64,000 nucleotides of DNA, taken from contig CAZMLK010000001.1 of assembly GCA_964567265.1 (NCBI GenBank), forward strand, positions 395,723 through 459,722, given 5' to 3'. The stretch's first letter is position 1; every line of letters begins with the position of its first letter. The DNA comes from an uncultured Candidatus Saccharibacteria bacterium (GTDB lineage: Bacteria; Patescibacteriota; Minisyncoccia; Phycocordibacterales; UBA12088). The notes under the pieces were generated by a model, which worked only from the letters and a program-made list of their open reading frames with translations, made no database searches and had not been told where the DNA came from. A program made the translations under genes and the position numbers. Below are positions 23,325 to 56,736 of the stretch, piece by piece.

Positions 23325-25730
23325 CTATGGAGTCGAAACTGCCCTGAGCATCGGCTCGATGCGGTCAGCAACCCGTGCATACCCGCTGGCATTCGGATGC
23401 ACCAAGTCGCTGCTCGTGAGGAACGGATTTCCCAGGACTCCTTTCAGGATATTCTCGACATACGCCGACTGCGTATCTCGTGCCACGTCCTTATACCGAT
23501 CATTGAGCGACGGGTTGAGGATGCCTCCGCCGAGACCGACCACGAGTACAACTGCTCCCTTCGCCTGGATGCGCTCCACAATGGTCTGCAGGTTCGAGAA
23601 TGTCTCAGCCCGTGAGACCGCGGGCACGCTGAGATTCGCGCCGATGCGGACAAGGATCAAGCGTATGCGTTCAGCAAAAGCCTTGTCGCCAATCGCGAGC
23701 GCTTCCTCATACATCCGGTGAAGCTCATCGTTCGCTCCGAGGAAGACAATGACGACTTTCGGATTCTTGGAAAGGACATCAGCGTCGAGGCGCGCGAGCG
23801 CCATCGAGGTATCGTTGCCGGACACGCCTGCATTCTGGATCGGCTTGCCGAGACGCTGCGAGAGCACGCTTACGTAGTCCTTTCCGGCAGGAGCACCGAC
23901 ACCGGAGGTCAGGCTGTCTCCGAGCGCGATAATATTCTGACCTTTTGATGGGTAGTTCTTGACCGGCCAGGGATTGCCTCCCGGATTCCCGCCGGTACCA
24001 CCCGTGGTTCCCCCGGTAGTACCGGTCGTTCCAGTAGTCCCTGTGGTGCCGGTCGTGCCTGTAGTTCCTGTAGTGCCCGTTGTCCCCGTGCTTCCGCCGC
24101 CGCCAACACGAATGCTGCCAGGACTCGCTCCAACTCGAGTGAACCCATCGTTGATGAATACGCGTGCCTCATAGATGCCATCAGCAAGTGAAGGAAAGGT
24201 CATCGATCCGGATGTTCCACCAGCTGGGATGTACTGCCATGCCGTGTACGAACGATCACCCTGCCCTGCTGCATAGATTCCCACCCAGTCTTTCGCATTG
24301 CGGCTCTGAGGTGCCTGCCAGTTCACGGTCACCGCGCCTCCAGACGGAACGGTTGCTGCTGCAAAGGCGACGGCATATCCGCCGGTACCGCCCGTCGTTC
24401 CTCCTGTGGTCCCTCCGGTCGTACCTGTGGTTCCCGTAGTACCGGTAGTTCCTGTCGTGCCTGTGGTTCCGGTAGTGCCCGTCGTTCCTGTGGTGCCAGT
24501 TGTCCCGCCCGTGGTGCCTCCCGTTCCTCCCATCGTAAATGCATTCGAGACCGCGACATGCGCACCCCCGCTGGTCACAAAATATCGTGCCTCATACACG
24601 CCCGGCTGGAAGCTTGTGAAATCAACGGCACCATCAGCAGATCCGATCGGAACATACTGCCACTTCCAATAGCCGCCATCGCTTCCAGAATTCGGCGTAT
24701 AGATGCCGATCCAGTCATGCGCTCCGACTGCAGGCGTGTGATAGGTCACATGCGCAACGCTGCCATTCACAGTAACTGAGAGCGAATATGAACCTCCGCC
24801 GCCGGTCGTTCCTCCTGTAGAGCCGCCCGTCGTACCTGTGGTTCCCGTAGTGCCCGTTGTCCCTGTCGTGCCAGTGGTCCCCGTCGTTCCAGTAGTACCA
24901 GTTGTGCCGGTTGTGCCCGTTCCGCCACCACCGCCAACACTGACAGAGCCAGGACTGGTCGCTGCACGCGTATATCCATTATTCAAATACAACCGCGCTT
25001 CATACTGGCCGTTCGCAAGTCCCGGAAAGCTGAGCGTTCCAGATGTCGCACCGCCGATGTACTGCCATGCCGTATACGAGCGATCTCCCTGGCCAGTCGC
25101 GTAAATGCCGACCCAATCTTGCGTACCGCGACTTGCGGGCGCCTGCCAGTTGACCACGACAGCACCTCCAGTCGGGACCGAAGCAGATGCGAACGAGACC
25201 GCATATCCTCCGGTACCGCCGGTGGTCCCGCCGGTAGTACCTCCCGTGGTCCCAGTTGTGCCGGTCGTTCCAGTCGTCCCCGTGGTACCGGTCGTGCCTG
25301 TTGTCCCAGATGTACCCGTCGTCCCAGTGGTTCCCGTAGTGCCTCCGGTTGTTCCCGTCCCTCCTCCGCCACCGTACGTGACCGAATTCGAGACTGCGAC
25401 ATGGCTATAGCCATTGGCGACAAGATACCGTGCTTCGTATGTGCCCGGATTGACGTTTAAGAAATCAATCGCTCCGTCTACCGCACCAGCCGGAACGTAC
25501 TGGTACAGGATGAATCCATGGTTGTCTGCTCCCACCGGAAAGAGTCCAATCCAATCCTGGTTGCCGGCCGTCGGCGCATGGTAGGTAACATGAATAATCC
25601 CGCCGGTGACAGTTGCATTCAACGTATAGCTTCCAACCTGCGCGTCAGCCCTTTCCACGGCTCCAAACCCAATGAGGGCGATCGCGGCTGAAAGAAGGAT
25701 TGTTGCCCTGATGGTGGTATGCATGGTCAT
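23325..25730 (-). CDS. secreted multidomain protein: 4 copies of a ~90-aa repeat (A-B-A-B) separated by Thr/Gly linkers, plus a C-terminal SGNH/GDSL hydrolase
   Basis: N-terminal signal-like ILLSAAIALIGFGAVERADA. The repeats carry DW[IV]G[IL][YF] and YEAR motifs. The C-terminal IIALGDSLTSG, SGND, FLGANDE and DLVHPN correspond to SGNH blocks I, II, III and V. Confidence 0.8.
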   Translation of the reverse strand: MTMHTTIRATILLSAAIALIGFGAVERADAQVGSYTLNATVTGGIIHVTYHAPTAGNQDWIGLFPVGADNHGFILYQYVPAGAVDGAIDFLNVNPGTYEARYLVANGYSHVAVSNSVTYGGGGGTGTTGGTTGTTGTTGTSGTTGTTGTTGTTGTTGTTGTTGGTTGGTTGGTGGYAVSFASASVPTGGAVVVNWQAPASRGTQDWVGIYATGQGDRSYTAWQYIGGATSGTLSFPGLANGQYEARLYLNNGYTRAATSPGSVSVGGGGGTGTTGTTGTTGTTGTTGTTGTTGTTGTTGTTGGSTGGTTGGGGSYSLSVTVNGSVAHVTYHTPAVGAHDWIGIYTPNSGSDGGYWKWQYVPIGSADGAVDFTSFQPGVYEARYFVTSGGAHVAVSNAFTMGGTGGTTGGTTGTTGTTGTTGTTGTTGTTGTTGTTGTTGGTTGGTTGGTGGYAVAFAAATVPSGGAVTVNWQAPQSRNAKDWVGIYAAGQGDRSYTAWQYIPAGGTSGSMTFPSLADGIYEARVFINDGFTRVGASPGSIRVGGGGSTGTTGTTGTTGTTGTTGTTGTTGTTGGTTGGTGGNPGGNPWPVKNYPSKGQNIIALGDSLTSGVGAPAGKDYVSVLSQRLGKPIQNAGVSGNDTSMALARLDADVLSKNPKVVIVFLGANDELHRMYEEALAIGDKAFAERIRLILVRIGANLSVPAVSRAETFSNLQTIVERIQAKGAVVLVVGLGGGILNPSLNDRYKDVARDTQSAYVENILKGVLGNPFLTSSDLVHPNASGYARVADRIEPMLRAVSTP
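23976..24104 (-). repeat. coding Thr/Gly (TTG)n linker 4, imperfect 9-bp periodic repeat
   Basis: Encodes GGGGSTGTTGTTGTTG... The antisense frame reads (VVP)n. Confidence 0.85.
24378..24530 (-). repeat. coding Thr/Gly (TTG)n linker 3
   Basis: Encodes GGTGGTTGGTTGTTGTTG...GGTTGGTGG. Confidence 0.85.
24792..24935 (-). repeat. coding Thr/Gly (TTG)n linker 2
   Basis: Encodes GGGGGTGTTGTTGTTG...GGSTGGTTGGGG. Confidence 0.85.
25206..25373 (-). repeat. coding Thr/Gly (TTG)n linker 1
   Basis: Encodes GGGGGTGTTGGTTGTTGTTGTSGTTG...GGTTGGTGG. Confidence 0.85.
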
Positions 25731-25862
25731 GATAGTGATGACTCGTATGATAACGGATTCTTTCTAAAGGGATTATGAAGACAGAAGTGGGTTACCCCGG
25801 CCGAGCTGCCTGATTTTTGCTCGGGCACACAATACAACGTTTTTGAGGGATTGCATAGGAAA

Positions 25863-25891
25863 AGAGGCCGCGCGAAGCGCGGCCTCTTTTT
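25863..25891. terminator. bidirectional terminator downstream of the beta-helix gene
   Basis: AGAGGCCGCGC-gaa-GCGCGGCCTCT flanked by A and T runs. Confidence 0.8.
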
Positions 25892-28848: not shown

Positions 28849-28982
28849 GTAACAAATTCAATGAGTAAGCGTTTTGTATTCTCGAAGACGGATTTGAAAC
28901 GTAGTCATTGCCACTGATTCACTATACCAGCTGCATTACGACAGAGGTATTCCGAATGGGGATTACGGCGGAAAAAACGGAA

Positions 28983-29013
28983 AAAGGCGGCCGCGCTTCG
29001 CGCGGCCGCCTTT
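28983..29013 (-). terminator. rho-independent terminator of the 29023 gene
   Basis: Minus strand: AAAGGCGGCCGCG-cgaa-GCGCGGCCGCCTTT followed by TTCCGTTTTTT. Confidence 0.8.
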
Positions 29014-29022
29014 CGCCTCCAC

Positions 29023-30603
29023 CTACATCGTTATCTGCACCGCATTCCCCGCCTGATCGTATCCATTCGCCTTGAAGTAACGGATCTCGTAGCTGCCGGG
29101 AGTGACATTCTGGAATGTGTAGGTGCCCGATGGGCCGGTCGCATACGACCATGCAAGATACGAGCGGTTGCCTGCCCCGGTCGCATAGAGCCCGATCCAG
29201 TCGGTCGTCGTGAACGCAGTACTTGGGCCCACCCAGCTCGCGATGATTGTATTTCCAGATCTCGATGCGGAGAGTGAATATCCGGCTGCGGCAGAAAGAT
29301 CAGCTCGTGCGACTGCCGCCTTCGCCTGTACGGTGATTTCCGGAGTAACTGCAACTGATGTGTATTTATTATTCTTCAGATACCGGATCTCGAAGGTGCC
29401 GGTGCGGTCGAGCGTGAATGTCATGTCGCCGCTCGCAGCATCCCCGGTGTATTTCCAGGTCCCGTAGCTCCGGTTCGACGCGCCCTTCTCATAGATCGCG
29501 ATCCAGTCCTGCGTATTCGACGAGCCTCCTGGCGTCTGCCAGTGCACGGTCACGGTATCACTAACTCGCGGGGTCTGAGAGGAAATCGTGAGCGAGTATC
29601 CGGCTGCCGCTGCAGCGGAGCCCAGTGTATAGGTCGCTGAGGTCGCACGCCGGGTGTAGCCGTTGTTCTCGAAGGTACGCGCCTCATATGCGCCGGGCTC
29701 GAGCGAGTCTGTATTGAAACTGAGCGTTCCCGAATTGCCGGATGGAAGATACTGCCACAGAAGATAGGAGGAATCAGCAGCGCCGACCGGATAGAGCCCG
29801 ACCCAATCCCGCGAACTGCGGCCGGTCGGCGCCTCGAACCGCACCGAGAGCGTATTCCCGGAAATGCCATTGATGGCGAGTGCGTAGTTCCCTACGGGTG
29901 CAGCCGCAGCGCTTCCGGTCGTACCGGTGGTTCCGTCTTCTGTTCCCGTCCCGCCACCACCAGTCACGATCTCGCGCCACGGACCGCTGGGCACATTGCC
30001 CGCGTCCACGAACCGCCAAGACACCAGCATCTGGTCGCCGCCGTTCAAGCAGTCGCGCATGGCGGGAGAGAGATCGATGCCGATTGATTGGCGCGGTCCC
30101 GCGCTTCCGAATACGTACGCAATATCATCCTCACCGTATGGTCCGACATCTTCCCACTGGCCGTAGCAGGTCGCACCGTTCGAGGTGACCGCCACCCAAT
30201 GATTCTTGAGCTGCGAAACGCTCTTGCTCGCGCCGGATTGATACCACGGGATCTGGCTCGCGTTCGATTTCTGGGATCCGTTATTGCCGATGTCGTTATA
30301 CGGAAGCGCGATATAGAACGGATTCTCCTTCGGAGTGAACGCGCACGGGCGGTAGCCGCATCGATTGTCGGGATCGTCTTCCCCGCCGTAATGAGTTGCC
30401 CAGAGCTCGTCCCATGCGCTCGGGACGTTCGAGATGAAGCCGTTGTCTGAGGTCGCGCCTTCGCCTACCCAGAAGACAGTCGCGTTGACCGTTTTCGGGT
30501 TCGTTTCGGTCGCGGTGATGGCTGCTGCCGGGTATGGATAGGCTGCTCCGAGTAGAAGGAGGAATACGGCTAGCGATGCGGCTCTAATGCCCTTCCGATT
30601 CAT
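29023..30603 (-). CDS. secreted protein: N-terminal conserved module (possibly DPBB/barwin-like) plus 3 copies of the same ~90-aa repeat found in 23325..25730
   Basis: Signal-like LAVFLLLLGAAYPYPAAA. N-terminal module has VFWVGEGATSDN, ENPFYIALPYND and GIDLSPAMRD. The repeats carry DWVGLY...YEARTF, DWIAIY...FEIRYL and DWIGLY...YEIRYF. Confidence 0.75.
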   Translation of the reverse strand: MNRKGIRAASLAVFLLLLGAAYPYPAAAITATETNPKTVNATVFWVGEGATSDNGFISNVPSAWDELWATHYGGEDDPDNRCGYRPCAFTPKENPFYIALPYNDIGNNGSQKSNASQIPWYQSGASKSVSQLKNHWVAVTSNGATCYGQWEDVGPYGEDDIAYVFGSAGPRQSIGIDLSPAMRDCLNGGDQMLVSWRFVDAGNVPSGPWREIVTGGGGTGTEDGTTGTTGSAAAAPVGNYALAINGISGNTLSVRFEAPTGRSSRDWVGLYPVGAADSSYLLWQYLPSGNSGTLSFNTDSLEPGAYEARTFENNGYTRRATSATYTLGSAAAAAGYSLTISSQTPRVSDTVTVHWQTPGGSSNTQDWIAIYEKGASNRSYGTWKYTGDAASGDMTFTLDRTGTFEIRYLKNNKYTSVAVTPEITVQAKAAVARADLSAAAGYSLSASRSGNTIIASWVGPSTAFTTTDWIGLYATGAGNRSYLAWSYATGPSGTYTFQNVTPGSYEIRYFKANGYDQAGNAVQITM

Positions 30604-30612
30604 GAAGGGGTT

Positions 30613-30618
30613 ACTTTA
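30613..30618 (-). promoter_or_regulatory. extended -10 box of the 29023..30603 gene (leaderless-type)
   Basis: Minus strand: TGTAAAGT-9 nt-ATG. Confidence 0.4.
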
Positions 30619-30674
30619 CAATTTTTCGGGGGTGGGGGCAAGGGAGAAATACAAAATCACAGTACCTTGAAGCA

Positions 30675-31538
30675 TCACTGATTTCCAGCTTCAAGCTGTG
30701 GATCGAGATCGTCCATGATGTACCGCATGAATTGTTTTCCCAGTTCAGTGAGAACCTGTTGATCATCGTTGAATGGAGACTTGAGCGTCTTAGCTTGGGG
30801 ACCGGCTTTCTTTTTTGCGACTCTTCGTCGCCACTGCCCATCCGCATCCGATTCTCGAGGTTGGCGCATAACGTCAGCCATTTGGAGTTCGTGGAAAAGG
30901 AACTTGAACAAATCGGCCTTCGCCGAGTCATCCCTTGGTATCTCACCGAATATCTCCGTTGCGATATCGTAAGAAGATATACCCGGATTCTGGTACACCA
31001 GCCTGAGTATCTGGAAATGAAGCTCGTGGAATCGCTCCATAAATTCCACAAAGAGGCGGACCACATCGTCATCCACAACGCGCATGCCAGCGGCGTTAGT
31101 GATGAGTTTTCGCAAACTCTCCCTTTTCTCGGTGGTATCGGCGCCGTCCCAGACGCGGAAAGTCTTACGCACAAGATTCAGATATTCTGTCGACTCTATT
31201 CGCTCTTCCGTCTGAATTCCAAATATCTCCAAACGCTCAAAGACACGACGCATATCCGCTAGTAACTCGCGAAGCTTCAACTCGTGCTCTTGTACCCACA
31301 AGAAAAGGAGCTTGTTCGTTATGCCTTGCTCCTTCTCGGCTGATAGAGTGGCAGCAGCACTTAAGACGCTTCCAACCCACGGAATACCACTCAACGCCGC
31401 CATTGCAACGCGTCCGTATTTCTTCCAATTTCCACCCGTTAGTTGCTCAAGAATAGCCCGCTCTTTTTCATTCAATACAACTGCTTCGATGCGTTCCGGG
31501 AGTTTGTGGTCTGCCATGGGAATCAGTCTACTCCTCAT
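30675..31538 (-). CDS. hypothetical protein (orphan, AT-richer than its neighbours)
   Basis: 287-aa ORF, alternative start at 31517 (MADHKLPERI). No recognised motif. Visibly lower GC than the flanking genes. Confidence 0.55.
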   Translation of the reverse strand: MRSRLIPMADHKLPERIEAVVLNEKERAILEQLTGGNWKKYGRVAMAALSGIPWVGSVLSAAATLSAEKEQGITNKLLFLWVQEHELKLRELLADMRRVFERLEIFGIQTEERIESTEYLNLVRKTFRVWDGADTTEKRESLRKLITNAAGMRVVDDDVVRLFVEFMERFHELHFQILRLVYQNPGISSYDIATEIFGEIPRDDSAKADLFKFLFHELQMADVMRQPRESDADGQWRRRVAKKKAGPQAKTLKSPFNDDQQVLTELGKQFMRYIMDDLDPQLEAGNQ

Positions 31539-31634
31539 ATATTTATCAGCAAATTTCTCGTAACATGTAACGAAATATGATTTTGTGCCCCCGTCTAGCT
31601 TCAGTGTGGTCGTCGGTCCTTACAGGACCAGTAT

Positions 31635-31726
31635 CCCGATTGGATTTTTTAGTGCGGCCATAAATGGCCGACAAAAAATGCTCAATCGGGCTTCGACTCC
31701 CGGACGAAGTCTCCCCCGGAGACTTC
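31635..31726. other. structured intergenic element: long imperfect hairpin, inverted tRNA T-arm fragment and 9-bp hairpin
   Basis: CCCGATTG (31635) pairs with CAATCGGG (31683), enclosing T6/A6 and CGGCCA/TGGCCG stems. CGGGCTTCGACTCCCGG (31687-31703) is the reverse complement of the tRNA-Glu T-arm with 1 insertion. GAAGTCTCC-ccc-GGAGACTTC at 31706-31726. Confidence 0.5.
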
Positions 31727-31758
31727 TTAGGGTCCCAACTTTCGCTACGCTCAATTTG

Positions 31759-31830
31759 TGACCCTACCGGGAGTCGAACCCGGCTTTAGAGCTTGAGAAG
31801 CTCTCGTCCTAACCGATAGACGATAGGGCC
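31759..31830 (-). tRNA. tRNA-Glu (anticodon CUC)
   Basis: Hand-folded 72-nt cloverleaf: acceptor GGCCCTA/TAGGGTC, D-arm GTCT-ATCGGTTA-GGAC, anticodon arm AGAGC-TTCTCAA-GCTCT, 4-nt variable loop, T-arm CCGGG-TTCGACT-CCCGG. CCA is not encoded. Confidence 0.9.
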
Positions 31831-31861
31831 AATGTACACCGAAAGTACCACAGTTTCCCGA

Positions 31862-31898
31862 TTTTAAAAAGGTGAGGCCGCCCAAGACATGGGCGGCC
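31862..31898 (-). terminator. rho-independent terminator of the 31903 gene
   Basis: Minus strand: GGCCGCCCA-tgtct-TGGGCGGCC followed by TCACCTTTTTAAAAT. Confidence 0.75.
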
Positions 31899-31902
31899 CA
31901 CT

Positions 31903-32205
31903 TCATTGCTTTGCTGGTTCGACAAGCTCAAGCGCGTCTGGGTGATACGTCTTATCTCGGCCTGACAAATGTACCTGTCCGCGCGCGTCTACCGACTTTA
32001 CCTGGTACTCCTCCCATCCGCGCGCATCTACCAGGCGGACGATATCTCCCTTCTTGAACGTAACCACGACCTTGTTGGCTTTTTGGCCGTCAGCACGCGT
32101 CCGCTGGCGTTTTCTTGTGTCGCGCAAAATGTCAGAGATCGTCTCATTAATGATTCTCTGATGTACCGCTCCTGGCCGCCGCCTGTCTCCGCTGGCGATG
32201 TCCAT
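31903..32205 (-). CDS. hypothetical small protein (100 aa; basic N-terminus, beta-rich C-terminus)
   Basis: Own promoter, GGAGG RBS and terminator. Start moved to MDIASGD within track ORF 31903..32283. No recognised motif. Confidence 0.5.
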   Translation of the reverse strand: MDIASGDRRRPGAVHQRIINETISDILRDTRKRQRTRADGQKANKVVVTFKKGDIVRLVDARGWEEYQVKSVDARGQVHLSGRDKTYHPDALELVEPAKQ

Positions 32206-32231
32206 CGAACCTCCATTCGTTGATGCTTTCG

Positions 32232-32262
32232 ATATTAAGATGCATATATTGAGATGTGTCAA
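32232..32262 (-). promoter_or_regulatory. sigma70-like promoter of the 31903 gene
   Basis: Minus strand: TTGACA followed 17-19 nt later by CTTAAT/TAATAT. Confidence 0.45.
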
Positions 32263-32301
32263 ATATAAGACCCCCGCGCGCACCTCGGTGCGGCGGGGGT
32301 C
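32263..32301 (-). terminator. rho-independent terminator of the 32309 gene
   Basis: Minus strand: GACCCCCGC..GCAC-cgag-GTGC..GCGGGGGTC followed by TTATATTTG. Confidence 0.7.
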
Positions 32302-32308
32302 GGACGGC

Positions 32309-32635
32309 CTAGGCCATCTGCGGCCAGACGAGACCTCTCATGAGCGAGCTGAGATCAGGCGTCGGGACTAGTTGGGAGATGCTGTGGAGCAGGCGGCGTA
32401 CTTTCCGCCCGCCCCGGACAGCGTCAGTCTGGATCGGCGTGACGTGGGCCATTAGGAGGCCAGTCCCCGTAAGAAACACTCGGCAAATGCGCACTATGAT
32501 GCGTCGTTTGCCGTCGATCAGATATGCCGTAAGCGCGGCGCCGCTTTTCAGTTGCTCCTTGAAAAATCGAAGGAGCGGATTTGTTGCCCGAGCCCGGGTA
32601 CGGCGGCCGCTATTCGTGCAAATCTTCAACGTCAT
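32309..32635 (-). CDS. hypothetical small protein (108 aa)
   Basis: GGAGG RBS 7 nt before the ATG, with its own terminator. No recognised motif. Confidence 0.5.
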   Translation of the reverse strand: MTLKICTNSGRRTRARATNPLLRFFKEQLKSGAALTAYLIDGKRRIIVRICRVFLTGTGLLMAHVTPIQTDAVRGGRKVRRLLHSISQLVPTPDLSSLMRGLVWPQMA

Positions 32636-32721
32636 CTACAAACCTCCGCTGGTTTCAGAGAACAAATGCCCTCCCTGGGCACCTGAAGATAGTACCGAAA
32701 AATTGACTTTTTGAAAAGGTG

Positions 32722-32751
32722 GGTTGAAAAATACCCGGGCGTGAGCCCGGG
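32722..32751 (-). terminator. rho-independent terminator of the 32775 gene
   Basis: Minus strand: CCCGGGC-tcac-GCCCGGG followed by TATTTTTC. Confidence 0.75.
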
Positions 32752-32774
32752 CATTGGTCGGATGAAAATTCTCT

Positions 32775-33185
32775 TCAGGCAGGCACGACGCCCGCGATTT
32801 CGAGGAAGCGCTCACGAAGCCACGCAGGCGGTCGTGGTGTTTCCTCGCTTCCATCTGCTGCAATGATCACGTGCTGGCAGTTTGTGTCCGACATACCGAG
32901 CACATGTTCCCCAAGCGAACGCGCATACGCATCCATATATTGTCTCACGTGTCTTGCAGCGTCGCGTCGCCTCCGCGTACTGAGCGAGAGCGCCTTCCGC
33001 CAGAGATGCGAGGGCTTGAACCAGTCGCGTGTTTCAACATACAGGCAGACAACCGAGATCGGGCAAATGCCGTCTCGGTAAGACGGAGGCACGAATCGTA
33101 GGTGCGTACCATGTATGAGAACGGGGGTATAGCTTCCGTTGCAGATTGCTGTTTTAAGCGTTGAAAGGAATGTTTCGATATCCAC
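32775..33185 (-). CDS. hypothetical protein (136 aa, GTG start)
   Basis: Own TTGACT-N17-TATAAA promoter, GGGGAG RBS and terminator. No recognised motif. Confidence 0.5.
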   Translation of the reverse strand: MDIETFLSTLKTAICNGSYTPVLIHGTHLRFVPPSYRDGICPISVVCLYVETRDWFKPSHLWRKALSLSTRRRRDAARHVRQYMDAYARSLGEHVLGMSDTNCQHVIIAADGSEETPRPPAWLRERFLEIAGVVPA

Positions 33186-33220
33186 GAGTCTTCACTCCCC
33201 TAGTACTATTGACTGGAAAT

Positions 33221-33249
33221 TTTATACATTACGGAAACATTAAAGTCAA
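33221..33249 (-). promoter_or_regulatory. sigma70-like promoter of the 32775 gene
   Basis: Minus strand: TTGACT-17 nt-TATAAA, immediately after the murF stop. Confidence 0.55.
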
Positions 33250-33253
33250 GTTC

Positions 33254-34546
33254 CTACCTCCGGAGCCACTCTGCGTCCTGGCGGGCGAGAAGCTCTTCCT
33301 TGATCTGCGGATTCGCCATGAACTGCTCGATACAGCGCTCCATGCGGATGGACTGCGAGCCTTTGACGAAAATGACATCCCCTTCCTCCATCATGGACTC
33401 GATCATCTGTCCTGCCTCTTCCGCATCCCTGCATTCGAAAATAGTCTTCTTCTTCATGCCGGCTGCGTGCGCGCTCTTGGCTGAGAAATGCGCCCGCACA
33501 CCGACGGTGAGGAGTATATCCGCGACTTCCGCGAGCTGCTTCCCCGCGATCTTATGCGCTTCGATCGAGTACGAGCCGAGCTCGAGCATGTCGCCGAAGG
33601 CGACGATAGTGCGCCGGTGCGTGGTGAGGCTCTTCAGCGTGGCGACCGCTTCTTCGACCGCAACCGGTGAGGCATTGTAGGAATCATCAACGATCATCGT
33701 CCCCTTCTCTCCCTTCAAAATGCGCATACGGCCCGGCGACGGGATATGGTTCTGGAACGCGTCGCGGAGTTCAGAAAGCGTGACGCCTTCGAGCGTTCCC
33801 ATCGCGGTCGCGGCAAGAAGCGGGTATGCATGCTGGGCGCCAAGAACGCCCGGCAGCGTGAAGTTCGCCGTTTCTCCCCCCGCGTTCACGATGAGCGTGA
33901 TGCCGGAGGTGAGGACATCATTGGTGAGCACGTTCTGGAGCCCGCGACCTTGTATTTCGGAGCCTTCGTGGAATCCATAGGTCACCATCCTTCCTTTCCA
34001 TCCTGCTGCACGCTTCAGGATGTTGTGATCGTCCTTGTTGATGATGAGCGTGCCGTTCTCGGTGAGCGCATGCACGATCTTGAAATCCTCGTCGTTGACG
34101 GCGTCTGGCGAATCGAAATATTCCACATGAACCGGCAGGTCAGGAAAGCGCGTGAGGATGACGGCATCCACAGAGAGCCACTTTGCGAGTGCTTCGATAT
34201 CGCCCGGATGATCCGAACCGACTTCGAGCACCAGCCATTCCGGATACTGCTCCTTCACGAAAATAAGCACGAGCCCCGCGACAATGTTCTTCGTCCACAG
34301 GAACGGATTGTTCCATGCATTCGGCCGCCCGAGGATGGTGAGCGGCACGCCGATCTCGCTGTTGAAGCTCTTCTGGCTTTTCCGCACGAAGTATTTCTCG
34401 GAAAGCGCGACATACACGGCGTCCTTGGTGGACGTCTTTCCGACACTGCCAGAAACCGCGACGATGCGCGGTTTGTATTTCTTAAGGATCAGCCTGGCTT
34501 CGAAGGTCAGTATTGCAACCAGGATGCTGCGAAGAATGTGTTTCAT
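33254..34546 (-). CDS. murF: UDP-N-acetylmuramoyl-tripeptide--D-alanyl-D-alanine ligase
   Basis: Mur ligase P-loop VAVSGSVGKTSTKD and central/C-terminal Mur ligase domains (DDSYNASP). Sits in the division/cell-wall cluster. Confidence 0.9.
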   Translation of the reverse strand: MKHILRSILVAILTFEARLILKKYKPRIVAVSGSVGKTSTKDAVYVALSEKYFVRKSQKSFNSEIGVPLTILGRPNAWNNPFLWTKNIVAGLVLIFVKEQYPEWLVLEVGSDHPGDIEALAKWLSVDAVILTRFPDLPVHVEYFDSPDAVNDEDFKIVHALTENGTLIINKDDHNILKRAAGWKGRMVTYGFHEGSEIQGRGLQNVLTNDVLTSGITLIVNAGGETANFTLPGVLGAQHAYPLLAATAMGTLEGVTLSELRDAFQNHIPSPGRMRILKGEKGTMIVDDSYNASPVAVEEAVATLKSLTTHRRTIVAFGDMLELGSYSIEAHKIAGKQLAEVADILLTVGVRAHFSAKSAHAAGMKKKTIFECRDAEEAGQMIESMMEEGDVIFVKGSQSIRMERCIEQFMANPQIKEELLARQDAEWLRR

Positions 34547-34620: not shown

Positions 34621-36333
34621 TTAGCGGTCCGGCGGGAGGTCGTAGTAGTTGATGAGGAAGTCGGTCAGCTCCATGAACGGCTCGGTGAGCGTATGGGATG
34701 CGTATTCCACGCCCTTTGGTTCGACAGTGTAGAGGAAGATGATGAACTTGGGATCGTAGGCCGGAAAGTACCCGAAGAATGAGTGGAGGTACCTGTCATC
34801 ATAATAGCCTCGCGCGCCCTCCTTCGCAATCTGCGCGGTACCGGTTTTCGCGGCGATCGTGTAATGCTCATGCTTGTATTGGCCTCCGAGCAATGACTTA
34901 TCCACAACCTCGACGAGCATGCGCGTGATTTCCTCGGAGGTCTCCTTCTTGAGGACCGGTCCCTCCGGCGGATACACCAGCGCCTTCGAGACGCCTGACG
35001 AGAGCTCGATCTCTTTCCCAAGATGCGGGGTCGGGAGCATGCCGCCGTTCCCGAGGGACGCGAGCGCGCGGATGGTCTCGACCGGCGAGAGCGCGATTCC
35101 CTGTCCGAACGATGCAGTCGCGTATTCGACAGCACGCGGGCTTTCGAGGTTCGTTATGAGGCCTGCGGCTTCGTTCGGAAGGTCGATGCCGGTTTCCTTG
35201 CCGAGATCATAGGCACGCATGTATTTTGCAAAATCATTCCGGCCCATCTTGTCGACGACGAACGCAACGCCGGTATTCAGCGACTGGTTGAGGACTTCCT
35301 GCATCGAGACGACGCCGCGCGCCTTGTGGTCGTAATTCGAGATGGTGTATCCGTCGAGCGTGATATGCCCCATGTCGTTGTATGTCGTCGTTCGCTTCAC
35401 GGCGCCGGAATCGAGGCCAGCCGCCATGGTAAGCGGCTTGATGATCGAGCCCATTTCATACACGTGCTCGACGAGCGGCTGCGCGAAGACCGTGGCATCT
35501 TCTACCTGCTTGAAATTATTGAGATCGAAGGTCGGATTGACCGCGAGCGCGTAAATCGACCCGTCCTTCGGATTCATGATGATGCCACCCGTAAGACGCG
35601 AAGAGTATTTCTGCTCAACACCCTTCAGGATTCCTTCGAGATATTGCTGGACCGACGGCTCGAGCGTGGTTACCACGTCACCAGCCTGACGCTTGCCCGT
35701 CTCGAAGACCGCGCTCCCGATCGTCGAGAACACTTCCGCGAAGAAGTTCACGTCGACGTTCTCAGTGTCGCGCGCAAGAACATCGTTGTAGTACCGCTCG
35801 AGGCCGACGATACCGGTCTCCGTGTCGCCCTGGAATCCGACGAAGCCGAGCGTCTGCGCCCCCAGCATTCCTCCCGGATAGAACCGCCAGCGCTCGCGAT
35901 AGGCGTGCACGCCCGGGAGGTCGAGCCCGTCGATCTTGATTGCCGCATCTTCAGGGACATGATCGGCAATCTCCTCATAGGGATCCTCCTTCTTCGCGGC
36001 GTGCGCCATGAATTCAGCTCGATCGAGCGGCGTGAGCGCATTCAAGGCGGCGTACACCTTTTCAGGGTCGCTGATAAGCCGCGGGTCGATCGCGATTGTG
36101 AAGCCAGAGGCGAGCGTCGCGCCCGAGACCTTCTTCCCATCCTTCGTCTCGAAGAAGATGGTGCCGCGATCGTAAAGATCCTGGTTCGGCCGGACATATT
36201 GCCGGTTGCCCCGCTCCGAATAGACATCGCCATGGACGATTTGTATGAAATACAGCCGGCCGATGAGGACCAGGCCGAACAGCAGTATGAATCCGGCGAT
36301 GAGGCGGATCCGGAGTGTGAAGGCGTGTCGCAT
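34621..36333 (-). CDS. ftsI: penicillin-binding protein (FtsI/PBP3-type transpeptidase)
   Basis: N-terminal TM helix, then GSIIKP (SxxK) and KTGTAQ (KTG). Located between the ftsL-like gene and murF. Confidence 0.9.
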   Translation of the reverse strand: MRHAFTLRIRLIAGFILLFGLVLIGRLYFIQIVHGDVYSERGNRQYVRPNQDLYDRGTIFFETKDGKKVSGATLASGFTIAIDPRLISDPEKVYAALNALTPLDRAEFMAHAAKKEDPYEEIADHVPEDAAIKIDGLDLPGVHAYRERWRFYPGGMLGAQTLGFVGFQGDTETGIVGLERYYNDVLARDTENVDVNFFAEVFSTIGSAVFETGKRQAGDVVTTLEPSVQQYLEGILKGVEQKYSSRLTGGIIMNPKDGSIYALAVNPTFDLNNFKQVEDATVFAQPLVEHVYEMGSIIKPLTMAAGLDSGAVKRTTTYNDMGHITLDGYTISNYDHKARGVVSMQEVLNQSLNTGVAFVVDKMGRNDFAKYMRAYDLGKETGIDLPNEAAGLITNLESPRAVEYATASFGQGIALSPVETIRALASLGNGGMLPTPHLGKEIELSSGVSKALVYPPEGPVLKKETSEEITRMLVEVVDKSLLGGQYKHEHYTIAAKTGTAQIAKEGARGYYDDRYLHSFFGYFPAYDPKFIIFLYTVEPKGVEYASHTLTEPFMELTDFLINYYDLPPDR

Positions 36334-42258: not shown

Positions 42259-43944
42259 CTAGCCTTCAAGGTATTCGGGGGTGTGGACAGCCATCCAATC
42301 GAGCAGTTGGCGCATCACGTAGACGCCGCCGAGCGTGTTCGTGACTGGCCCTCGCTCCATGAGGACGATGAAGGCGTAGCGTGGATGCTCATATGGGAAA
42401 AAACCGGTTGCCCATGAGTTCACGTGCTGCTTGTCGCGTCCGAGCTGCGCGGTTCCGGTCTTCGAGGCGACATGGATGCTGTCCTTGTTGAGCCCGACGC
42501 CGGTGCCCATGAGCACTCCTTGCCGCATACCCTCCTGCACCACCTTGAAATCCTCTGCCGGTATGTCCACCTTCGTGCCGGTTTGCGTGGTCGAGGCGAT
42601 CAACGAGGGCGTGAGGAGCGTGCCTCCGTTCGCGATCGATGCGATTGCGCGGAGCATCTGGATCGGTGTCACCTGGAACCCATACTGCCCGATGACCGTG
42701 TTGTACGTGTCACCGACGCGCCAGTCTTCCCCGTCGAACATCTTCTTCTTCCATTCCGGATTCGGGATCGTTCCCGATTCCTCGCCCGGAAGCTGGATGC
42801 CGGTCGGCGACGCGATACCGAAGAGACGCGCGTACTTCTCAACGTTCGCGATGCCCATGCCCTGCTGGCCCGGGAAGCCGCCGCCGATCTCATAGAAATA
42901 CACATCCGAGGAGACGGCGATCGCATCTCGCATATCCACCCAGCCATGCGCCTTCCAGTCATTGAACCGGGAGGGCCTCGAAGGATCGTATGGATTCGGG
43001 ACCGTGATGTAGCCCGCCGAGTAGATCTGCTTCTCAGGCGAGATGACGCCCTCCTGGAGCGCCCCGAGCGCCATGAAGGGCTTCACGATAGATCCCGGCG
43101 TGTAGAGGCCGGAGACCATCCGGTCGAGGAAGGGCTTCCGGGTATCGCTCATGTATTCCTGGACCGCAGCACGGTCGTCAGCGCTCGACATGACGCTCGG
43201 CCGGTACTCAGGATAGCTCGTGAGCGCGATCAGCTCGCCTGTGCGGACATCCATGATGGCACCTGCGCCTCCTGTGAATGGCACCTGGTCGGCAAGCCCC
43301 TTGATGAATCCATAGAAGGCTTCTTCCACGCGCGCATCGATCGAGAGCGTTACATTGCCGCCGTCCCTGGGCGGCGTCAGCACGCTCTCGGAGTGGACCG
43401 CACCATGCGCGTCCACCTCGATCATGCGCTTGCCATTCTCTCCGGAAAGCTGGTCATTGAAGGAGCGTTCAGTGCCGGCTACACCCTTGTACTCGACTTC
43501 ATAGAATTTGCCGGATGAATCCTTCTTAGGAAGCGTGATGTATCCGAGGATATGGCCGAATCCGGCTGCATCGATATATGAGCGGCTCGCGAACGGCTCC
43601 GGCGTATCGCGCGTATTCCATGCGAGCTCCGTCCCACGCCGATCGTAGAGGACGCCACGGCGCGCGAACACTGTCGATTCCTCGAGCCGGTTCTGCTCGC
43701 TCCGTTCCTTGTACGTGCTTCCCTCGGCTATCTGGAGGATAGAGAGCCGGCCCACGAGCGCGAGGAGGATGAGGACGGCGCCGCTTCCGACGATGAGGAA
43801 CGCCTGCTTGCGGATCGGCGTCTCGAGCCGTCCTTCCATCTGGGCAGTATTGAATTCGGGAAGATTGCGGGAATCAAGAAAAATCTCGTCGGGATCGATC
43901 TCGACGACGCGCGTTCGTTTCTTGCTGAAGAATGGGATGCGCAT
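42259..43944 (-). CDS. mrdA: penicillin-binding protein 2 (elongation transpeptidase)
   Basis: N-terminal TM helix, then GSIVKP (SxxK), SSD (SxN-like) and KTGTAQ. Directly downstream of mreBCD. Confidence 0.9.
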   Translation of the reverse strand: MRIPFFSKKRTRVVEIDPDEIFLDSRNLPEFNTAQMEGRLETPIRKQAFLIVGSGAVLILLALVGRLSILQIAEGSTYKERSEQNRLEESTVFARRGVLYDRRGTELAWNTRDTPEPFASRSYIDAAGFGHILGYITLPKKDSSGKFYEVEYKGVAGTERSFNDQLSGENGKRMIEVDAHGAVHSESVLTPPRDGGNVTLSIDARVEEAFYGFIKGLADQVPFTGGAGAIMDVRTGELIALTSYPEYRPSVMSSADDRAAVQEYMSDTRKPFLDRMVSGLYTPGSIVKPFMALGALQEGVISPEKQIYSAGYITVPNPYDPSRPSRFNDWKAHGWVDMRDAIAVSSDVYFYEIGGGFPGQQGMGIANVEKYARLFGIASPTGIQLPGEESGTIPNPEWKKKMFDGEDWRVGDTYNTVIGQYGFQVTPIQMLRAIASIANGGTLLTPSLIASTTQTGTKVDIPAEDFKVVQEGMRQGVLMGTGVGLNKDSIHVASKTGTAQLGRDKQHVNSWATGFFPYEHPRYAFIVLMERGPVTNTLGGVYVMRQLLDWMAVHTPEYLEG

Positions 43945-44271: not shown

Positions 44272-45090
44272 TTACTGCGCGCTTGTCGAGGTCGCACCCG
44301 CGGGCGCGATTTCGACCGTACGGAGCTCGCGGATGTTGACGGGACTTTTCGCGAGCGCGGTCTCGAACGAATCAGCAGCCTTCGAGCGCAGCGCGCCGAC
44401 GAGCGCGACCAAGGAGCTCGTGATTCCAGGAAGCGCGATCGGAGAATTGGTAGCAGCGATCGTACCCCGCGGAAGCTGCACGATGAAATTCCCGCCGCCC
44501 TGCCCGATCAAGGAGACGGACACCGAGGTCGTCGCCTGGAGGATATCCGCGCTGGTGCTGACTCCGGGAGACGAATACAGCGTGACCCGCGCACGGCTCG
44601 GCCCCACCTCTTCGACCGTGCCGAGCGCGAGCGCGCCGTAGGCGTACACCTTGTCCCCTTTCCGGATGCCACTCTCCTGCCCCGCGTCGATGACGAGCGA
44701 ATCATACGGAATCTCGGGCGGCCGGAGCAGGATGCCCGCGCGGATGCGCGCCCTCTCGGGATTGCGTCCCGCGAATGCGCGCAGGGACTCGTTTTCAGCC
44801 TCAAGAAGTGTCATCGCGACGCTTTTCGCGTTTGCATCGCGGAGTTCCTGCTTCAGCGCGGCATTCTCGTCAACGAGCGCGCGCTTGGAGCGGAGGAGCT
44901 CGATGACGGTACCCGATGACGCGACCGTGCCCGATTCTATCGATGCGACCGGGCGGAGCACGCCGAACACGAGGTTCTCGAGGAACGCCGGCGGCTTCGC
45001 GAAGAAGAAAAGCGCAACGACCAAAAGCGCTCCCATCACTGCGAGCTTGTAGCGGCTGAATGCTGTTTTACGTTCCTGGAGAGAGCGCAT
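44272..45090 (-). CDS. mreC: rod shape-determining protein MreC
   Basis: N-terminal TM helix, coiled coil (LKQELRDANAK), and beta-barrel repeats (GIRKGD.V, GLIGQ-like). Position after mreB. Confidence 0.85.
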   Translation of the reverse strand: MRSLQERKTAFSRYKLAVMGALLVVALFFFAKPPAFLENLVFGVLRPVASIESGTVASSGTVIELLRSKRALVDENAALKQELRDANAKSVAMTLLEAENESLRAFAGRNPERARIRAGILLRPPEIPYDSLVIDAGQESGIRKGDKVYAYGALALGTVEEVGPSRARVTLYSSPGVSTSADILQATTSVSVSLIGQGGGNFIVQLPRGTIAATNSPIALPGITSSLVALVGALRSKAADSFETALAKSPVNIRELRTVEIAPAGATSTSAQ

Positions 45091-56632: not shown

Positions 56633-56677
56633 GGTGTCGCCTAGGCAGTATACCTGCTTGCGCTTTGCTGGTCGTTG

Positions 56678-56706
56678 TTGACATATTGGACTTAATATGT
56701 TTTTAT
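56678..56706 (+). promoter_or_regulatory. sigma70-like promoter of the 56737 gene
   Basis: TTGACA-17 nt-TTTTAT, then AGGAGG 7 nt before the TTG start. Confidence 0.4.
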
Positions 56707-56736
56707 ATCTCTCAGACAAACACAGGAGGACCTCCC

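Follow-up and report, generated by a model that had tools for sequence, protein, structure and literature searches.

What explains the four genes that lie around a tRNA-Glu gene directly downstream of murF in a Patescibacteria (Paceibacteria-type) genome of ∼0.62 Mb? Patescibacteria have tiny genomes and, to our knowledge, very few recognized mobile elements, so that the gain and loss of accessory genes in this group is poorly understood. Here, we analyze the locus within a 64,000-nucleotide stretch of contig CAZMLK010000001.1 (the whole of it is called the window below) and propose that it is probably a hotspot for integrase-less gene cassettes at the tRNA-Glu 3′ end, with the DNA on both sides of the tRNA turning over between close strains.

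The murF gene (33254 to 34546; Pfam Mur_ligase_M and Mur_ligase_C) is the last of an mraZ-rsmH-ftsL-ftsI-murF block on the minus strand, as are all genes and features given here. ftsI (34621 to 36333) also has Pfam support in the window, and mraZ and rsmH were named from Pfam matches of their counterparts on the contig of a relative, L172. As the original prediction stated, the cluster stops at murF without mraY or murD; Pfam scans of the window ORFs found no mraY/murD/ftsW/murG-type gene after it, so the canonical dcw continuation is absent. The 71 nt past the murF stop codon are unstructured (fold z = +1.47), leaving murF without a terminator of its own. Among murF loci from 80 relatives, tRNA-Glu lies at most 4 kb downstream of murF in 42, and on the same strand within ∼500 bp in 23. 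One ORF downstream of murF was tested from each of 10 relatives, and none was mraY, murD, or ftsW (Pfam); they were enolase, Thr synthase or dehydratase, or had no Pfam match. Since none of the 10 was a dcw gene, a block with murF as its last gene and tRNA-Glu(CUC) next looks like the usual order of the lineage, and the claim that an islet interrupts the division and cell wall cluster is not supported. A gene order conserved throughout the lineage was to count against the original prediction; such conservation extends to murF and tRNA-Glu and not to the inserted genes.

The inserted genes vary. In the nearest relative, L172 (murF protein 96.8% identical), blastn found no counterpart of window positions 33265 to 32731 and 31754 to 30645. 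Identity stops 4 nt past the tRNA 3′ end and resumes at the promoter of the ORF p526 (blastn block limits and junction alignments), where the distal junction (30604 to 30674) carries a GGTACT −10-like box ∼40 to 60 bp upstream of the p526 start codon (30603). In place of the window's structured spacer and 287-amino-acid (aa) gene, L172 has a different variant of the spacer element and two small membrane-protein ORFs. It also lacks the ∼520-bp unit with the 136-aa ORF, of which only a remnant of the 3′ end is kept (junction alignments). A more distant relative, L001, has murF, 83 bp, tRNA-Glu, ∼350 bp, and a p801 homologue, with none of the four window genes. Presence/absence polymorphism with a junction at the tRNA 3′ end was found between the window and L172, and atypical composition was found for the 287-aa region (GC content and hexamer score). 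No integrase or recombinase domain occurred among 34 window ORFs scanned by Pfam, most of the larger ones included, which agrees with the predicted lack of an integrase, and positions 30611 to 33253 have no room for a recombinase gene. The proposal of a decayed integrative islet or accessory module therefore stands as far as tRNA-centered, accessory, compositionally atypical, integrase-less DNA is concerned; a single decayed island does not fit the three or more independently varying pieces. With one close relative available for the window's own lineage, each change may have been either a gain or a loss.

The conserved anchor of the locus is tRNA-Glu(CUC) (31758 to 31830), confirmed by ARAGORN and by Rfam RF00005 (56.9 bits versus a threshold of 29). 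Between it and the 287-aa gene lies a spacer (31585 to 31757), here element E, which is structured as predicted (fold z = −4.36). In order, E comprises GACCCTA (the acceptor 3′ strand of the tRNA, reverse complemented), AG, a hairpin (AAGTCTCC/GGAGACTT), CGT, CCGGGAGTCGAA (the T-stem and T-loop of the tRNA, reverse complemented), a long AU-rich hairpin, a hairpin GGTCC-TGTAA-GGACC, and a degenerate tRNA-3′-like end, TAGACGGGGGCAC. Its 5′ arm is thus an inverted copy of the 3′ end of the adjacent tRNA. In a seven-sequence alignment, compensatory changes were found at 15 of 29 pairs, and none of 500 shuffles attained the observed score; the anti-strand followed the tRNA of its own genome in 59 of 60 cells. 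A covariance model of E matched the window at 31585 to 31736 (100.1 bits); at E < 0.01, it gave 17 matches across murF loci totaling 1.27 Mb versus 0 across 0.65 Mb of control loci. Rfam gave no match to E in the window (E up to 1), in eight relatives (gathering thresholds), or in four relatives (E up to 5), and ARAGORN in tmRNA mode found nothing in 82 sequences. E is a conserved, covarying, and previously undescribed structured DNA or RNA element adjoining tRNA-Glu.

In relatives, the 3′ arm of E directly repeats the tRNA 3′ end; 14 relative loci have 10 to 12 of 12 matches to that end, 120 to 205 nt downstream. The arm has decayed in the window (8 of 12 matches), where the 22-nt tRNA 3′ end occurs only once even when up to three mismatches are allowed. 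Direct repeats of the tRNA 3′ end at the borders, the check attached to the original prediction, are accordingly a feature of the relatives and not of the window. E units repeat in relatives and bracket single-gene cassettes. Perfect 16-nt copies of the tRNA 3′ end recur in four loci (L008, L009, L013, and L067); in L008, 29-nt direct repeats of the E 3′ end flank a 99-aa gene, and the order in L067 is tRNA, A, B, PRAI gene, …CACTTGGGTCAC, A′, B′. Two loci, L024 and L025, share 93 to 96% DNA identity across most of their length and differ by cassette content, an inversion, and an E–E deletion. No recombinase was identified adjoining the cassette arrays or in the window.

Under the cassette hotspot reading, cassettes would be gained and lost through recombination at the very 3′ terminus of tRNA-Glu and at the copies of it borne by E. 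In relatives, units of E type and perfect copies of the tRNA 3′ end recur downstream of the tRNA and bracket single genes with their own promoter and terminator, a pattern that fits tandem accretion of integrase-less cassettes of the CIME kind. Mobilization might be provided in trans, or cassettes might be exchanged by homologous recombination after DNA uptake. Because the window has no second tRNA 3′ end and its E 3′ arm is degenerate, site-specific insertion of the 287-aa gene is inferred from the relatives; the three ORFs upstream of the tRNA lack E-type repeats and so may have arisen differently.

The 287-aa gene (30675 to 31538) has no terminator before p526, and the database copy of its protein starts at an in-frame ATG at 31517 (280 aa). 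The region is AT-richer, as predicted (GC content, 0.47 to 0.51 versus about 0.55 to 0.60 in the flanks), and the gene has a hexamer score of 0.25 versus 0.63 for host genes. The protein has more than 212 homologues across phyla. Its N-terminal domain is all-helical and carries an AAL..PW.G motif that is invariant; its C terminus forms a MarR/PadR-like winged helix. Homologues in other phyla adjoin integrases, resolvases, prophage repressors, and Abi/defense genes. In Acidobacteriia, the order is tRNA-Ala, integrase, homologue, and then Abi_alpha; in Paceibacterota, a resolvase, P4_cII, and HigB lie near the homologue; and in two Patescibacteria prophage-like regions, an S24 repressor, a ∼215-aa partner, and the homologue are followed by HEPN_AbiU2 or a large serine recombinase. 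Immediate neighbors at 67 loci include AbiGi, KwaB, TIR, AbiJ, and integrases; an 80%-identical copy occurs in unrelated contexts, and adjacency to a tRNA is only occasional in the family. The family is therefore a widespread winged-helix protein traveling with prophages, integrases, and defense genes, as its distribution and fold show, and the 287-aa gene is cargo originating from a mobile element. Its product is a putative mobile-element-borne DNA-binding accessory or defense-associated protein, encoded here by a solo gene.

Among the immediate neighbors at the 67 loci, 8 match the PADLOC candidate defense model PDC-S54. Counted over about 80 loci, 8 to 10 have a gene immediately upstream of the 287-aa homologue, in many cases with an overlap, whose product matches the N-terminal half of this model (profile positions 4 to 199 of 410; E down to 1e−40). 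The 287-aa protein itself matches no defense model (PDC-S54, none at E up to 1), and the window has no partner gene. No paper in the literature searched mentions PDC-S54. With its PDC-S54-like partner, beside prophage repressors, the family is a candidate two-gene phage defense or exclusion module. Against MarR/PadR/HxlR regulators, the Pfam scores fall below threshold with no significant sequence match; these regulators have no counterpart to the conserved ∼160-residue helical N-terminal domain, and no operator or regulated gene is evident for the 287-aa protein.

Upstream of the tRNA, the 100-aa gene unit (31862 to 32262) has TTGACA (32262 to 32257), an 18-nt spacer, TTAATA (32238 to 32233), a GGAGG ribosome-binding site, the ORF (31903 to 32205), and a terminator (31875 to 31899; fold z = −5.24). 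The 108-aa gene unit (32262 to 32725) has a TACTAT −10-like box, a GGAGG ribosome-binding site, an ORF (32309 to 32635; hexamer score, 0.40) called as a gene in the source genome, and a terminator hairpin (32269 to 32301; fold z = −4.05). Both genes were found only in the window and in L172, where the 108-aa protein has an equal-length copy at 90% identity (dN/dS, 0.42; 5, 4, and 11 differences by codon position) and the 100-aa protein a copy at 88% identity (dN/dS, 0.28; 7, 5, and 15 differences). The ratio is 0.02 to 0.09 in four neighboring genes and 0.20 in rsmH. Given this weak purifying selection and the sharing with L172 only, the two genes look real but young and restricted to the lineage. 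Residues 51 to 95 of the 100-aa protein were modeled by AlphaFold2 at a pLDDT of ∼88, and Foldseek returned Tudor, KOW, and SH3-like barrels (E, ∼0.01 to 0.1); the predicted protein is a basic N-terminal helix followed by a C-terminal SH3/Tudor/KOW-like barrel.

The 136-aa cassette (32726 to 33253), adjoining murF, is of doubtful coding status. Its ORF (32775 to 33185) has a GTG start and a GGGGAG ribosome-binding site, and a terminator hairpin with a T-run follows (32733 to 32752; fold z = −4.45). The promoter predicted directly after the murF stop was confirmed as a motif, read by eye (TTGACT, 33249 to 33244; 17-nt spacer; TATAAA, 33226 to 33221). The ORF had no real homologue among 1.84 billion representative proteins, is missing from a 15-billion-protein collection in which its three neighbors from the same genome are present, and is not among the called proteins of the source genome. 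Its hexamer coding score of 0.00 is ambiguous (true genes, 0.63 ± 0.33; shadow ORFs, −0.56 ± 0.42), and we consider it doubtful as a gene. Of the claim that each small gene has its own promoter, ribosome-binding site, and terminator, the strong hairpin after each gene bears out the last; the promoters of the small ORFs are plausible by eye, without statistical support, a generic promoter scan having found one site versus 2.0 expected. The description of all four genes as orphans fails for the 287-aa gene with its many homologues.

Three other explanations were weighed. A single classical integrative island at tRNA-Glu, which lost its integrase and decayed to four remnant genes, would suit the tRNA-centered position, the AT-richer 287-aa gene, the homologues of that gene adjoining integrases at tRNA genes elsewhere, and the present absence of an integrase. 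However, the four genes flank the tRNA on both sides, and integration at a 3′ end cannot insert DNA between murF and the tRNA 5′ end. The pieces vary independently, L172 sharing the 108- and 100-aa genes but not the 136-aa and 287-aa units; moreover, no direct repeat of the tRNA end occurs in the window, and the tRNA-adjacent spacer is not island DNA but an ancient element found across the lineage. We regard such an island as very improbable. That nothing accessory lies upstream of the tRNA, the three small ORFs having arisen by chance within a long, structured leader or intergenic stretch (perhaps one of non-coding RNAs or of hairpins that regulate the tRNA), also seems quite unlikely to us. 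The 136-aa ORF, uncalled and without homologue, would fit, as would hexamer scores below the true-gene mean in all three ORFs, the chance-level promoter scan, and the dS of 0.11 in the 108-aa ORF versus ∼0.5 in murF and ftsI, which could reflect nucleotide-level constraint. The 108- and 100-aa frames are nevertheless intact and of equal length in two genomes ∼7% diverged in DNA, with differences mostly at third positions and dN/dS below 1; each has GGAGG 7 to 9 nt before its ATG and its own terminator, and the C-terminal half of the 100-aa protein confidently folds to a known barrel type.

The remaining alternative concerns E itself, which may be transcribed as a tRNA-like non-coding RNA that plays a role in the cell (e.g., as a substrate of tRNA maturation enzymes or by acting on tRNA-Glu), the nearby gene turnover being ordinary homologous recombination and deletion unrelated to E. 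Its internal helices covary strongly, one hairpin loop (UGUAA) is invariant, and E is single copy per locus in most genomes and kept across very deep divergence (murF only 42 to 47% identical). Its 5′ end can pair with its 3′ end into a minihelix of acceptor plus T-stem, CA follows the 3′ end (giving …CACCA) in L007, L054, and L070, and on the tRNA strand G-U pairs weakly outnumber A-C mismatches. Against a transcript, many relatives have a strong A-run/hairpin/T-run terminator between the tRNA and E, with no room for a promoter; repeated E units and copies of the tRNA 3′ end bracket cassettes, and two E copies have recombined together in L024 relative to L025. We hold an RNA role to be possible but rather unlikely.

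Returning to the cassette hotspot, near-identical strains differ by single small genes at a conserved chromosomal address, murF–tRNA-Glu, where a tRNA-tracking element recurs. If E is a recombination site, it would be a compact system for gene capture with no integrase nearby; as an RNA, it would represent a new tRNA-linked non-coding RNA family. Either reading would account for the piling up of “orphan” genes at the locus, and the E model could serve as a marker to find such hotspots in other genomes. A bolder proposal, speculative and in our view unlikely, is that E (130 to 220 nt) is a new kind of recombination site, with arms formed by an inverted and a direct copy of the last ∼19 nt of the tRNA, so that a single-strand fold rebuilds the double-stranded tRNA-Glu 3′ end. 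Integrase-less single-gene cassettes would then be captured at the tRNA in an integron- or CTX-like manner, perhaps by a host recombinase and from DNA that these naturally competent, ultra-small bacteria take up, and the islet in the window would be one instance of a Patescibacteria-wide system.

Attachment sites that act as folded single strands reportedly include the bottom strand of integron attC and the CTX phage attP, on which XerCD acts. The arms of E, when folded, would likewise present the rebuilt tRNA end as a hairpin stem, a likeness that is purely structural. Integron cassettes are bounded by attC sites, with R″/R′ boxes RYYYAAC/GTTRRRY, recombined by IntI, and CALINs are clusters of attC sites without an integrase. 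The arrays here resemble these in being single-gene units, mostly of unknown function, with no integrase adjoining the array, and in being separated by imperfect palindromes of ∼60 to 170 nt conserved in structure rather than sequence. Unlike in integrons, the ends of E, an imperfect palindrome (GACCCTA…TAGGGTC), do not read as R″/R′ boxes, no IntI-like gene was seen among the Pfam-scanned ORFs, the anchor is a tRNA gene and not attI, the cassettes carry their own promoters and terminators, and the palindrome arms are the tRNA's own 3′ sequence, covarying with the tRNA.

The third comparison is with CIMEs, integrase-less islands that accrete in tandem at the 3′ end of tRNA or tmRNA genes, as known from elements related to ICESt1 (PMC5704250); the ssrA islands of Dehalococcoides are an example of such accretion (PMC3146451). 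The units here are far smaller (∼0.15 kb empty and 0.4 to 1 kb with one gene), and each has a conserved structured element that includes an inverted copy of the target; no cognate integrase-bearing element was found, and the far border in the window has no repeat. As in CIMEs, a small RNA gene is targeted at its 3′ end, copies of this end recur downstream and bracket cargo (L008, L009, L013, L067, and L024), the units are without recombination genes, and near-identical genomes differ in their content.

The division and cell-wall block lies on the minus strand, with mraZ, rsmH and ftsL upstream of ftsI (34621-36333) and murF (33254-34546); ftsI and murF were supported by Pfam in the window, and mraZ and rsmH were named from Pfam matches of their counterparts on L172, the 24.8-kb contig of the nearest relative. 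Downstream of murF, on the same strand, are ORFs of 136 aa (32775-33185), 108 aa (32309-32635) and 100 aa (31903-32205), tRNA-Glu(CUC) (31758-31830), a 219-nt spacer, a 287-aa ORF (30675-31538) and three large surface-protein genes (p526, p978 and p801). The window proteins come from a 621,860-bp contig. What the original prediction observed here was largely correct, because the TTGACT-N17-TATAAA motif is present directly past the murF stop (33249-33221), a strong terminator-like hairpin follows each small ORF (z = -4.45, -4.05 and -5.24), the spacer folds far beyond shuffled sequence (z = -4.36), the 287-aa gene is AT-richer (GC 0.47-0.51 versus 0.55-0.60), and 0 recombinase domains were found by a Pfam scan of 34 window ORFs (most larger ones included), in keeping with the reported lack of an integrase. 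No comparable hairpin follows murF or the 287-aa gene, and a generic promoter scan of the region returned 1 site versus 2.0 expected, i.e., no excess over chance. A GTACTA, GTACTT or GTACTG hexamer, usually preceded by G or TG, stands at the expected -10 position of the 136-aa ORF (33197-33192), the 108-aa gene (32685-32680), the tRNA (31842-31837) and p526 (30664-30659; also in L172); a TACTNT-type -10 box, unscored by the standard scan, may be used in promoters of this lineage. Elsewhere, the window holds two full-length MreB paralogues about 10 kb apart (45068-46141 and 55619-56719) and two class-B penicillin-binding proteins (34621-36333 and 42259-43944), which is notable given so small a genome.

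Gene order was compared with the 80 nearest murF loci among GTDB species representatives, almost all labelled Patescibacteria (Paceibacteria, Kaiserbacteria, Nomurabacteria and similar; best murF, 68% identical). In 23/80 loci, a same-strand tRNA-Glu was no more than about 500 bp from the murF stop; in 9 further loci the distance was 0.6 to 2.6 kb, and in 10 the tRNA was nearby but inverted relative to murF; the anticodon was CUC except for two with UUC. Ten downstream ORFs from 10 relatives, tested by Pfam, included no mraY, murD or ftsW, and were enolase, threonine synthase or dehydratase, or without a Pfam match. Because tRNA-Glu frequently follows murF and none of these ORFs belongs to the division/cell-wall block, a block ending with murF and tRNA-Glu looks like the lineage's usual arrangement, and the proposed interruption of the cluster after murF was not upheld. 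Relative L001, for example, has murF, 83 bp, tRNA-Glu, about 350 bp and a p801 homologue. An inverted tRNA-Glu with its downstream element (E, described below) was seen 0.8 to 3.5 kb downstream of murF in L002, L004, L005, L007, L016, L017, L029, L045, L051 and L052, and the entire tRNA segment is flipped between the near-identical loci L024 and L025; the tRNA-Glu locus thus appears to undergo inversions. In three loci, the murF-tRNA-Glu gap holds a same-strand protein of 395 to 413 aa with no Pfam match (L066, 11456-12640; L068, 7425-8630; L074, 5005-6243).

The order in L172 is mraZ, rsmH, ftsL, ftsI, murF, 108-aa gene, 100-aa gene, tRNA-Glu, two small membrane-protein ORFs, p526 and p978. 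By blastn, two window segments lack a counterpart there. The first (33265-32731) is the 136-aa unit, of which L172 retains a 3'-end remnant missing the hairpin, so that loss in L172 would be slightly favoured. The second (31754-30645) comprises the spacer element and the 287-aa gene; its L172 equivalent is 920 bp of unrelated AT-rich DNA. Identity ends 4 nt past the tRNA and restarts at the GGTACT -10-like box of p526, and an accessory, tRNA-centred module had been correctly sensed. A single decayed island fits poorly, since the 136-aa unit and the spacer/287-aa segment differ from L172 and the 108- and 100-aa genes are shared. The block holding these two genes and the tRNA (31755-32730; L172, 9906-10881) is 93.4% identical, versus 87.5 to 90.6% for flanking core genes, and dS is 0.11 in the 108-aa gene, far lower than in murF and ftsI (0.50); because block similarity exceeds that of the flanks and this dS is low, recent exchange or nucleotide-level constraint is suggested.

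None of the four window ORFs had a tblastn match in any of the 80 loci, and protein searches with the 108- and 100-aa sequences returned the source genome and one close relative only (90% and 88% identity). Both frames are intact and of equal length in the window and L172, with differences by codon position of 5, 4 and 11 (108-aa) and 7, 5 and 15 (100-aa). Their dN/dS values (0.42 and 0.28, respectively) compare with 0.20 for rsmH and 0.02 to 0.09 for ftsL, ftsI, murF, p526 and p978; their hexamer scores (0.40 and 0.13) are above the shadow-ORF 95th percentile (0.08) and under the gene mean (0.63). In the 100-aa protein, AlphaFold2 confidently modelled the C-terminal part as a beta-barrel (pLDDT about 88), which resembles Tudor, KOW and SH3-like domains. 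We accept both ORFs as young, lineage-restricted, weakly constrained genes. For the 136-aa ORF, the hexamer coding score was 0.00, no homologue was found among 1.84 billion representatives (the sole match was a repeat artefact), no nucleotide or translated match occurred in any fetched sequence, and it is missing from the protein collection, where three neighbours of the same genome are present. It may be a protein-less transcript or an ORF of very recent origin; a duplication or gene fragment was rejected, with no blastn or tblastx match of the cassette to the window or any of 177 loci.

Four orphans had been predicted, a count that is wrong for the 287-aa protein, which has >212 homologues (about 280 to 295 aa) in Paceibacterota, Wolfebacteria, Acidobacteriia, Baltobacteraceae and many metagenomes; these proteins have no Pfam family and share 22 invariant positions. 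Scans of the four proteins against Pfam, PHROGs, PADLOC and NCBIfam gave nothing above threshold, the sole weak signals being Colicin_E5 (17.7 bits; cut-off, 25) and wHTH matches; exact-sequence look-up of the 287- and 280-aa forms returned no record, and a Foldseek comparison of the model with PDB yielded nothing that matched over the full length (E > 0.1). The window's gene has 80%-identical copies elsewhere, in unrelated contexts. In Acidobacteriia, the order is tRNA-Ala, tyrosine integrase, small ORF, 287-aa homologue, Abi_alpha and DUF6119; one Paceibacterota genome carries an RHS toxin, resolvase, P4_cII, Beta_protein, an M78/HTH protein and HigB around its homologue; and a large serine recombinase lies about 1.2 kb away in a Baltobacteraceae genome. 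Two Patescibacteria prophage-like regions, one with an upstream terminase and methylase and the other with a large serine recombinase, have an S24/LexA-type repressor, a roughly 215-aa partner, the 287-aa homologue and HEPN_AbiU2. Among 149 immediate neighbours at 67 loci were AbiGi, KwaB, TIR, AbiJ, integrases and S24 peptidases; 8/149 matched the N-terminal half of PDC-S54, a PADLOC candidate defence system on which no paper was found, and in about 10 loci such a partner lies immediately upstream of the homologue, frequently overlapping it. The window's gene is without this occasional partner. In prophage-like regions, the family forms a tight two-gene unit with the roughly 200- to 220-aa PDC-S54 N-half protein (L175, 4692-6849; L177, 4667-7490; L114, 2039-3516; L117, 7289-8756), with the S24/LexA-type repressor directly upstream and HEPN_AbiU2 downstream. 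Temperate phages carry exclusion genes at this position. In L090 (740-3012), one of the 80%-identical copies, with about 77% DNA identity, starts 100 bp past tRNA-Ser(GCU) and is split in two by an insertion with two opposite-strand ORFs (112 and 114 aa).

Because these neighbourhoods vary and are mobile, gene context marks the 287-aa protein as mobile-element cargo, and we infer a putative DNA-binding accessory or defence-associated protein. A viral origin was rejected: the family is not typically phage-borne in IMG/VR, given 1 relative only among 2.9 million contigs. Nor is tRNA adjacency a general family trait; among roughly 90 loci retrieved, many of which have short flanks, only about 8 distinct contexts place a tRNA within 2 kb, so there is no strong enrichment. 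Membership of the spacer in a 287-aa cassette was likewise rejected: DNA upstream of the 80%-identical copies is unrelated, and because its first 66 nt match the sequence following tRNA-Glu in the more distant relative L001, the spacer belongs with the tRNA. Rfam and ARAGORN (tmRNA mode) gave no match to a tmRNA, RNase P RNA, ribozyme or other Rfam family; a multicopy MITE was also rejected, the hairpins being unique in the 64-kb window and the spacer itself single-copy in most loci.

In the window and at least nine relatives, the tRNA is followed, often after an A-run/hairpin/T-run terminator, by inverted pieces of the tRNA end, in the order acceptor 3'-strand reverse complement, AG, a roughly 20-nt hairpin, CGU, and T-stem/T-loop reverse complement. 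Both pieces are complementary to each locus's own tRNA, at constant spacing (31 to 34 nt), and at six variable tRNA 3'-end positions the downstream copy compensates in 59/60 cells (permutation P < 5e-5). A direct copy of at least the tRNA's last 12 nt (10 to 12 of 12 matches) follows 120 to 205 nt downstream in 14 relatives, against a chance expectation, by our own estimate, of about 0.3 loci across 47; in 3/14 it is followed by CA (...CACCA). Between these arms, element E has a long AU-rich hairpin plus either a type A core (a hairpin whose UGUAA loop is invariant and whose stem covaries) or a type B core (GCCGGAG...CGAGGCGGGGUCGCGAG). In a 7-sequence alignment, 87% of cells pair, with compensatory changes in 15/29 pairs; 0/500 shuffles matched the observed covariation score, and slid controls reached at most 0.18 versus 0.42. 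Across murF loci totalling 1.27 Mb, a covariance model gave 17 matches at E < 0.01; in control loci (0.65 Mb), no match fell below E = 0.1. Eleven of the 17 immediately follow a tRNA-Glu(CUC) in the same orientation, a second copy farther downstream of that tRNA accounts for two more, and the remaining four have no close tRNA (three of these near contig ends). The window's E occupies 31585-31757; compared with the tRNA, its 5' arm is perfect (7/7 and 13/14 matches), and the 3' arm has degenerated into TAGACGGGGGCAC, similar to TAGGCGGGGTCAC in L001.

Repeats of the tRNA 3' end, which the original prediction had suggested seeking in relatives, were found as perfect 16-nt copies recurring downstream in L008, L009, L013 and L067. 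In L008, the 3' end of the element occurs as 29-nt direct repeats on either side of a 99-aa gene that has a promoter-like box and a ribosome-binding site of its own; in L067, the tRNA is followed by units A and B, a PRAI gene (238 aa), ...CACTTGGGTCAC, A' and B'. L024 and L025 share 93 to 96% DNA identity across most of both loci. In L024, tRNA and E1 precede a 121-aa gene that has a promoter and a terminator, followed by ...CACTTGGGTCGC and E2; in L025, the tRNA is followed by a type B E, a terminator and a second E that is split around a 98-aa membrane-protein gene, its 5' half before the gene and its 3' half after it. Since E2 of L024 equals the first E of L025 fused to the 3' half of the second, the two elements recombined. 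The CACTTG-GGTC(A/G)C junction is identical in two distant genomes, which would suggest site-specific crossover within the last 7 nt of the tRNA. The terminator between tRNA and E, together with the arrays, leans towards a DNA role for E; the invariant loop and deep conservation lean towards an RNA nature. No paper on tRNA-like RNA in the Candidate Phyla Radiation was found.

Further downstream, a very similar pair of palindromic, bidirectional terminator-like sequences flanks p978 (25859-25891 and 28982-29014; AAAAGAGGCCGCGC-GAA-GCGCGGCCTCTTTT and AAAGGCGGCCGCGC-TTC-GCGCGGCCGCCTTT). This 978-aa beta-helix/PG-binding gene may be a separate acquired unit, because relatives occur in 2/80 loci only and its 5' end is AT-richer. 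Runs of a 9-nt periodic repeat within p801 (23968-25361), with one stretch in p526 (29915-29962), come at intervals of roughly 400 nt between SKICH-like domains, where they encode Thr/Gly-rich linkers on the coding strand; both repetitive surface proteins could be prone to length variation.

We consider it rather probable that the conserved murF-tRNA-Glu junction anchors a cassette hotspot that varies between strains, at which integrase-less units would accrete in tandem at the tRNA 3' end. CIMEs (PMC5704250) and the Dehalococcoides ssrA islands (PMC3146451) are known examples of this accretion pattern. Unlike in those systems, each unit here consists of one gene, and a structured element containing both orientations of the tRNA target accompanies it.
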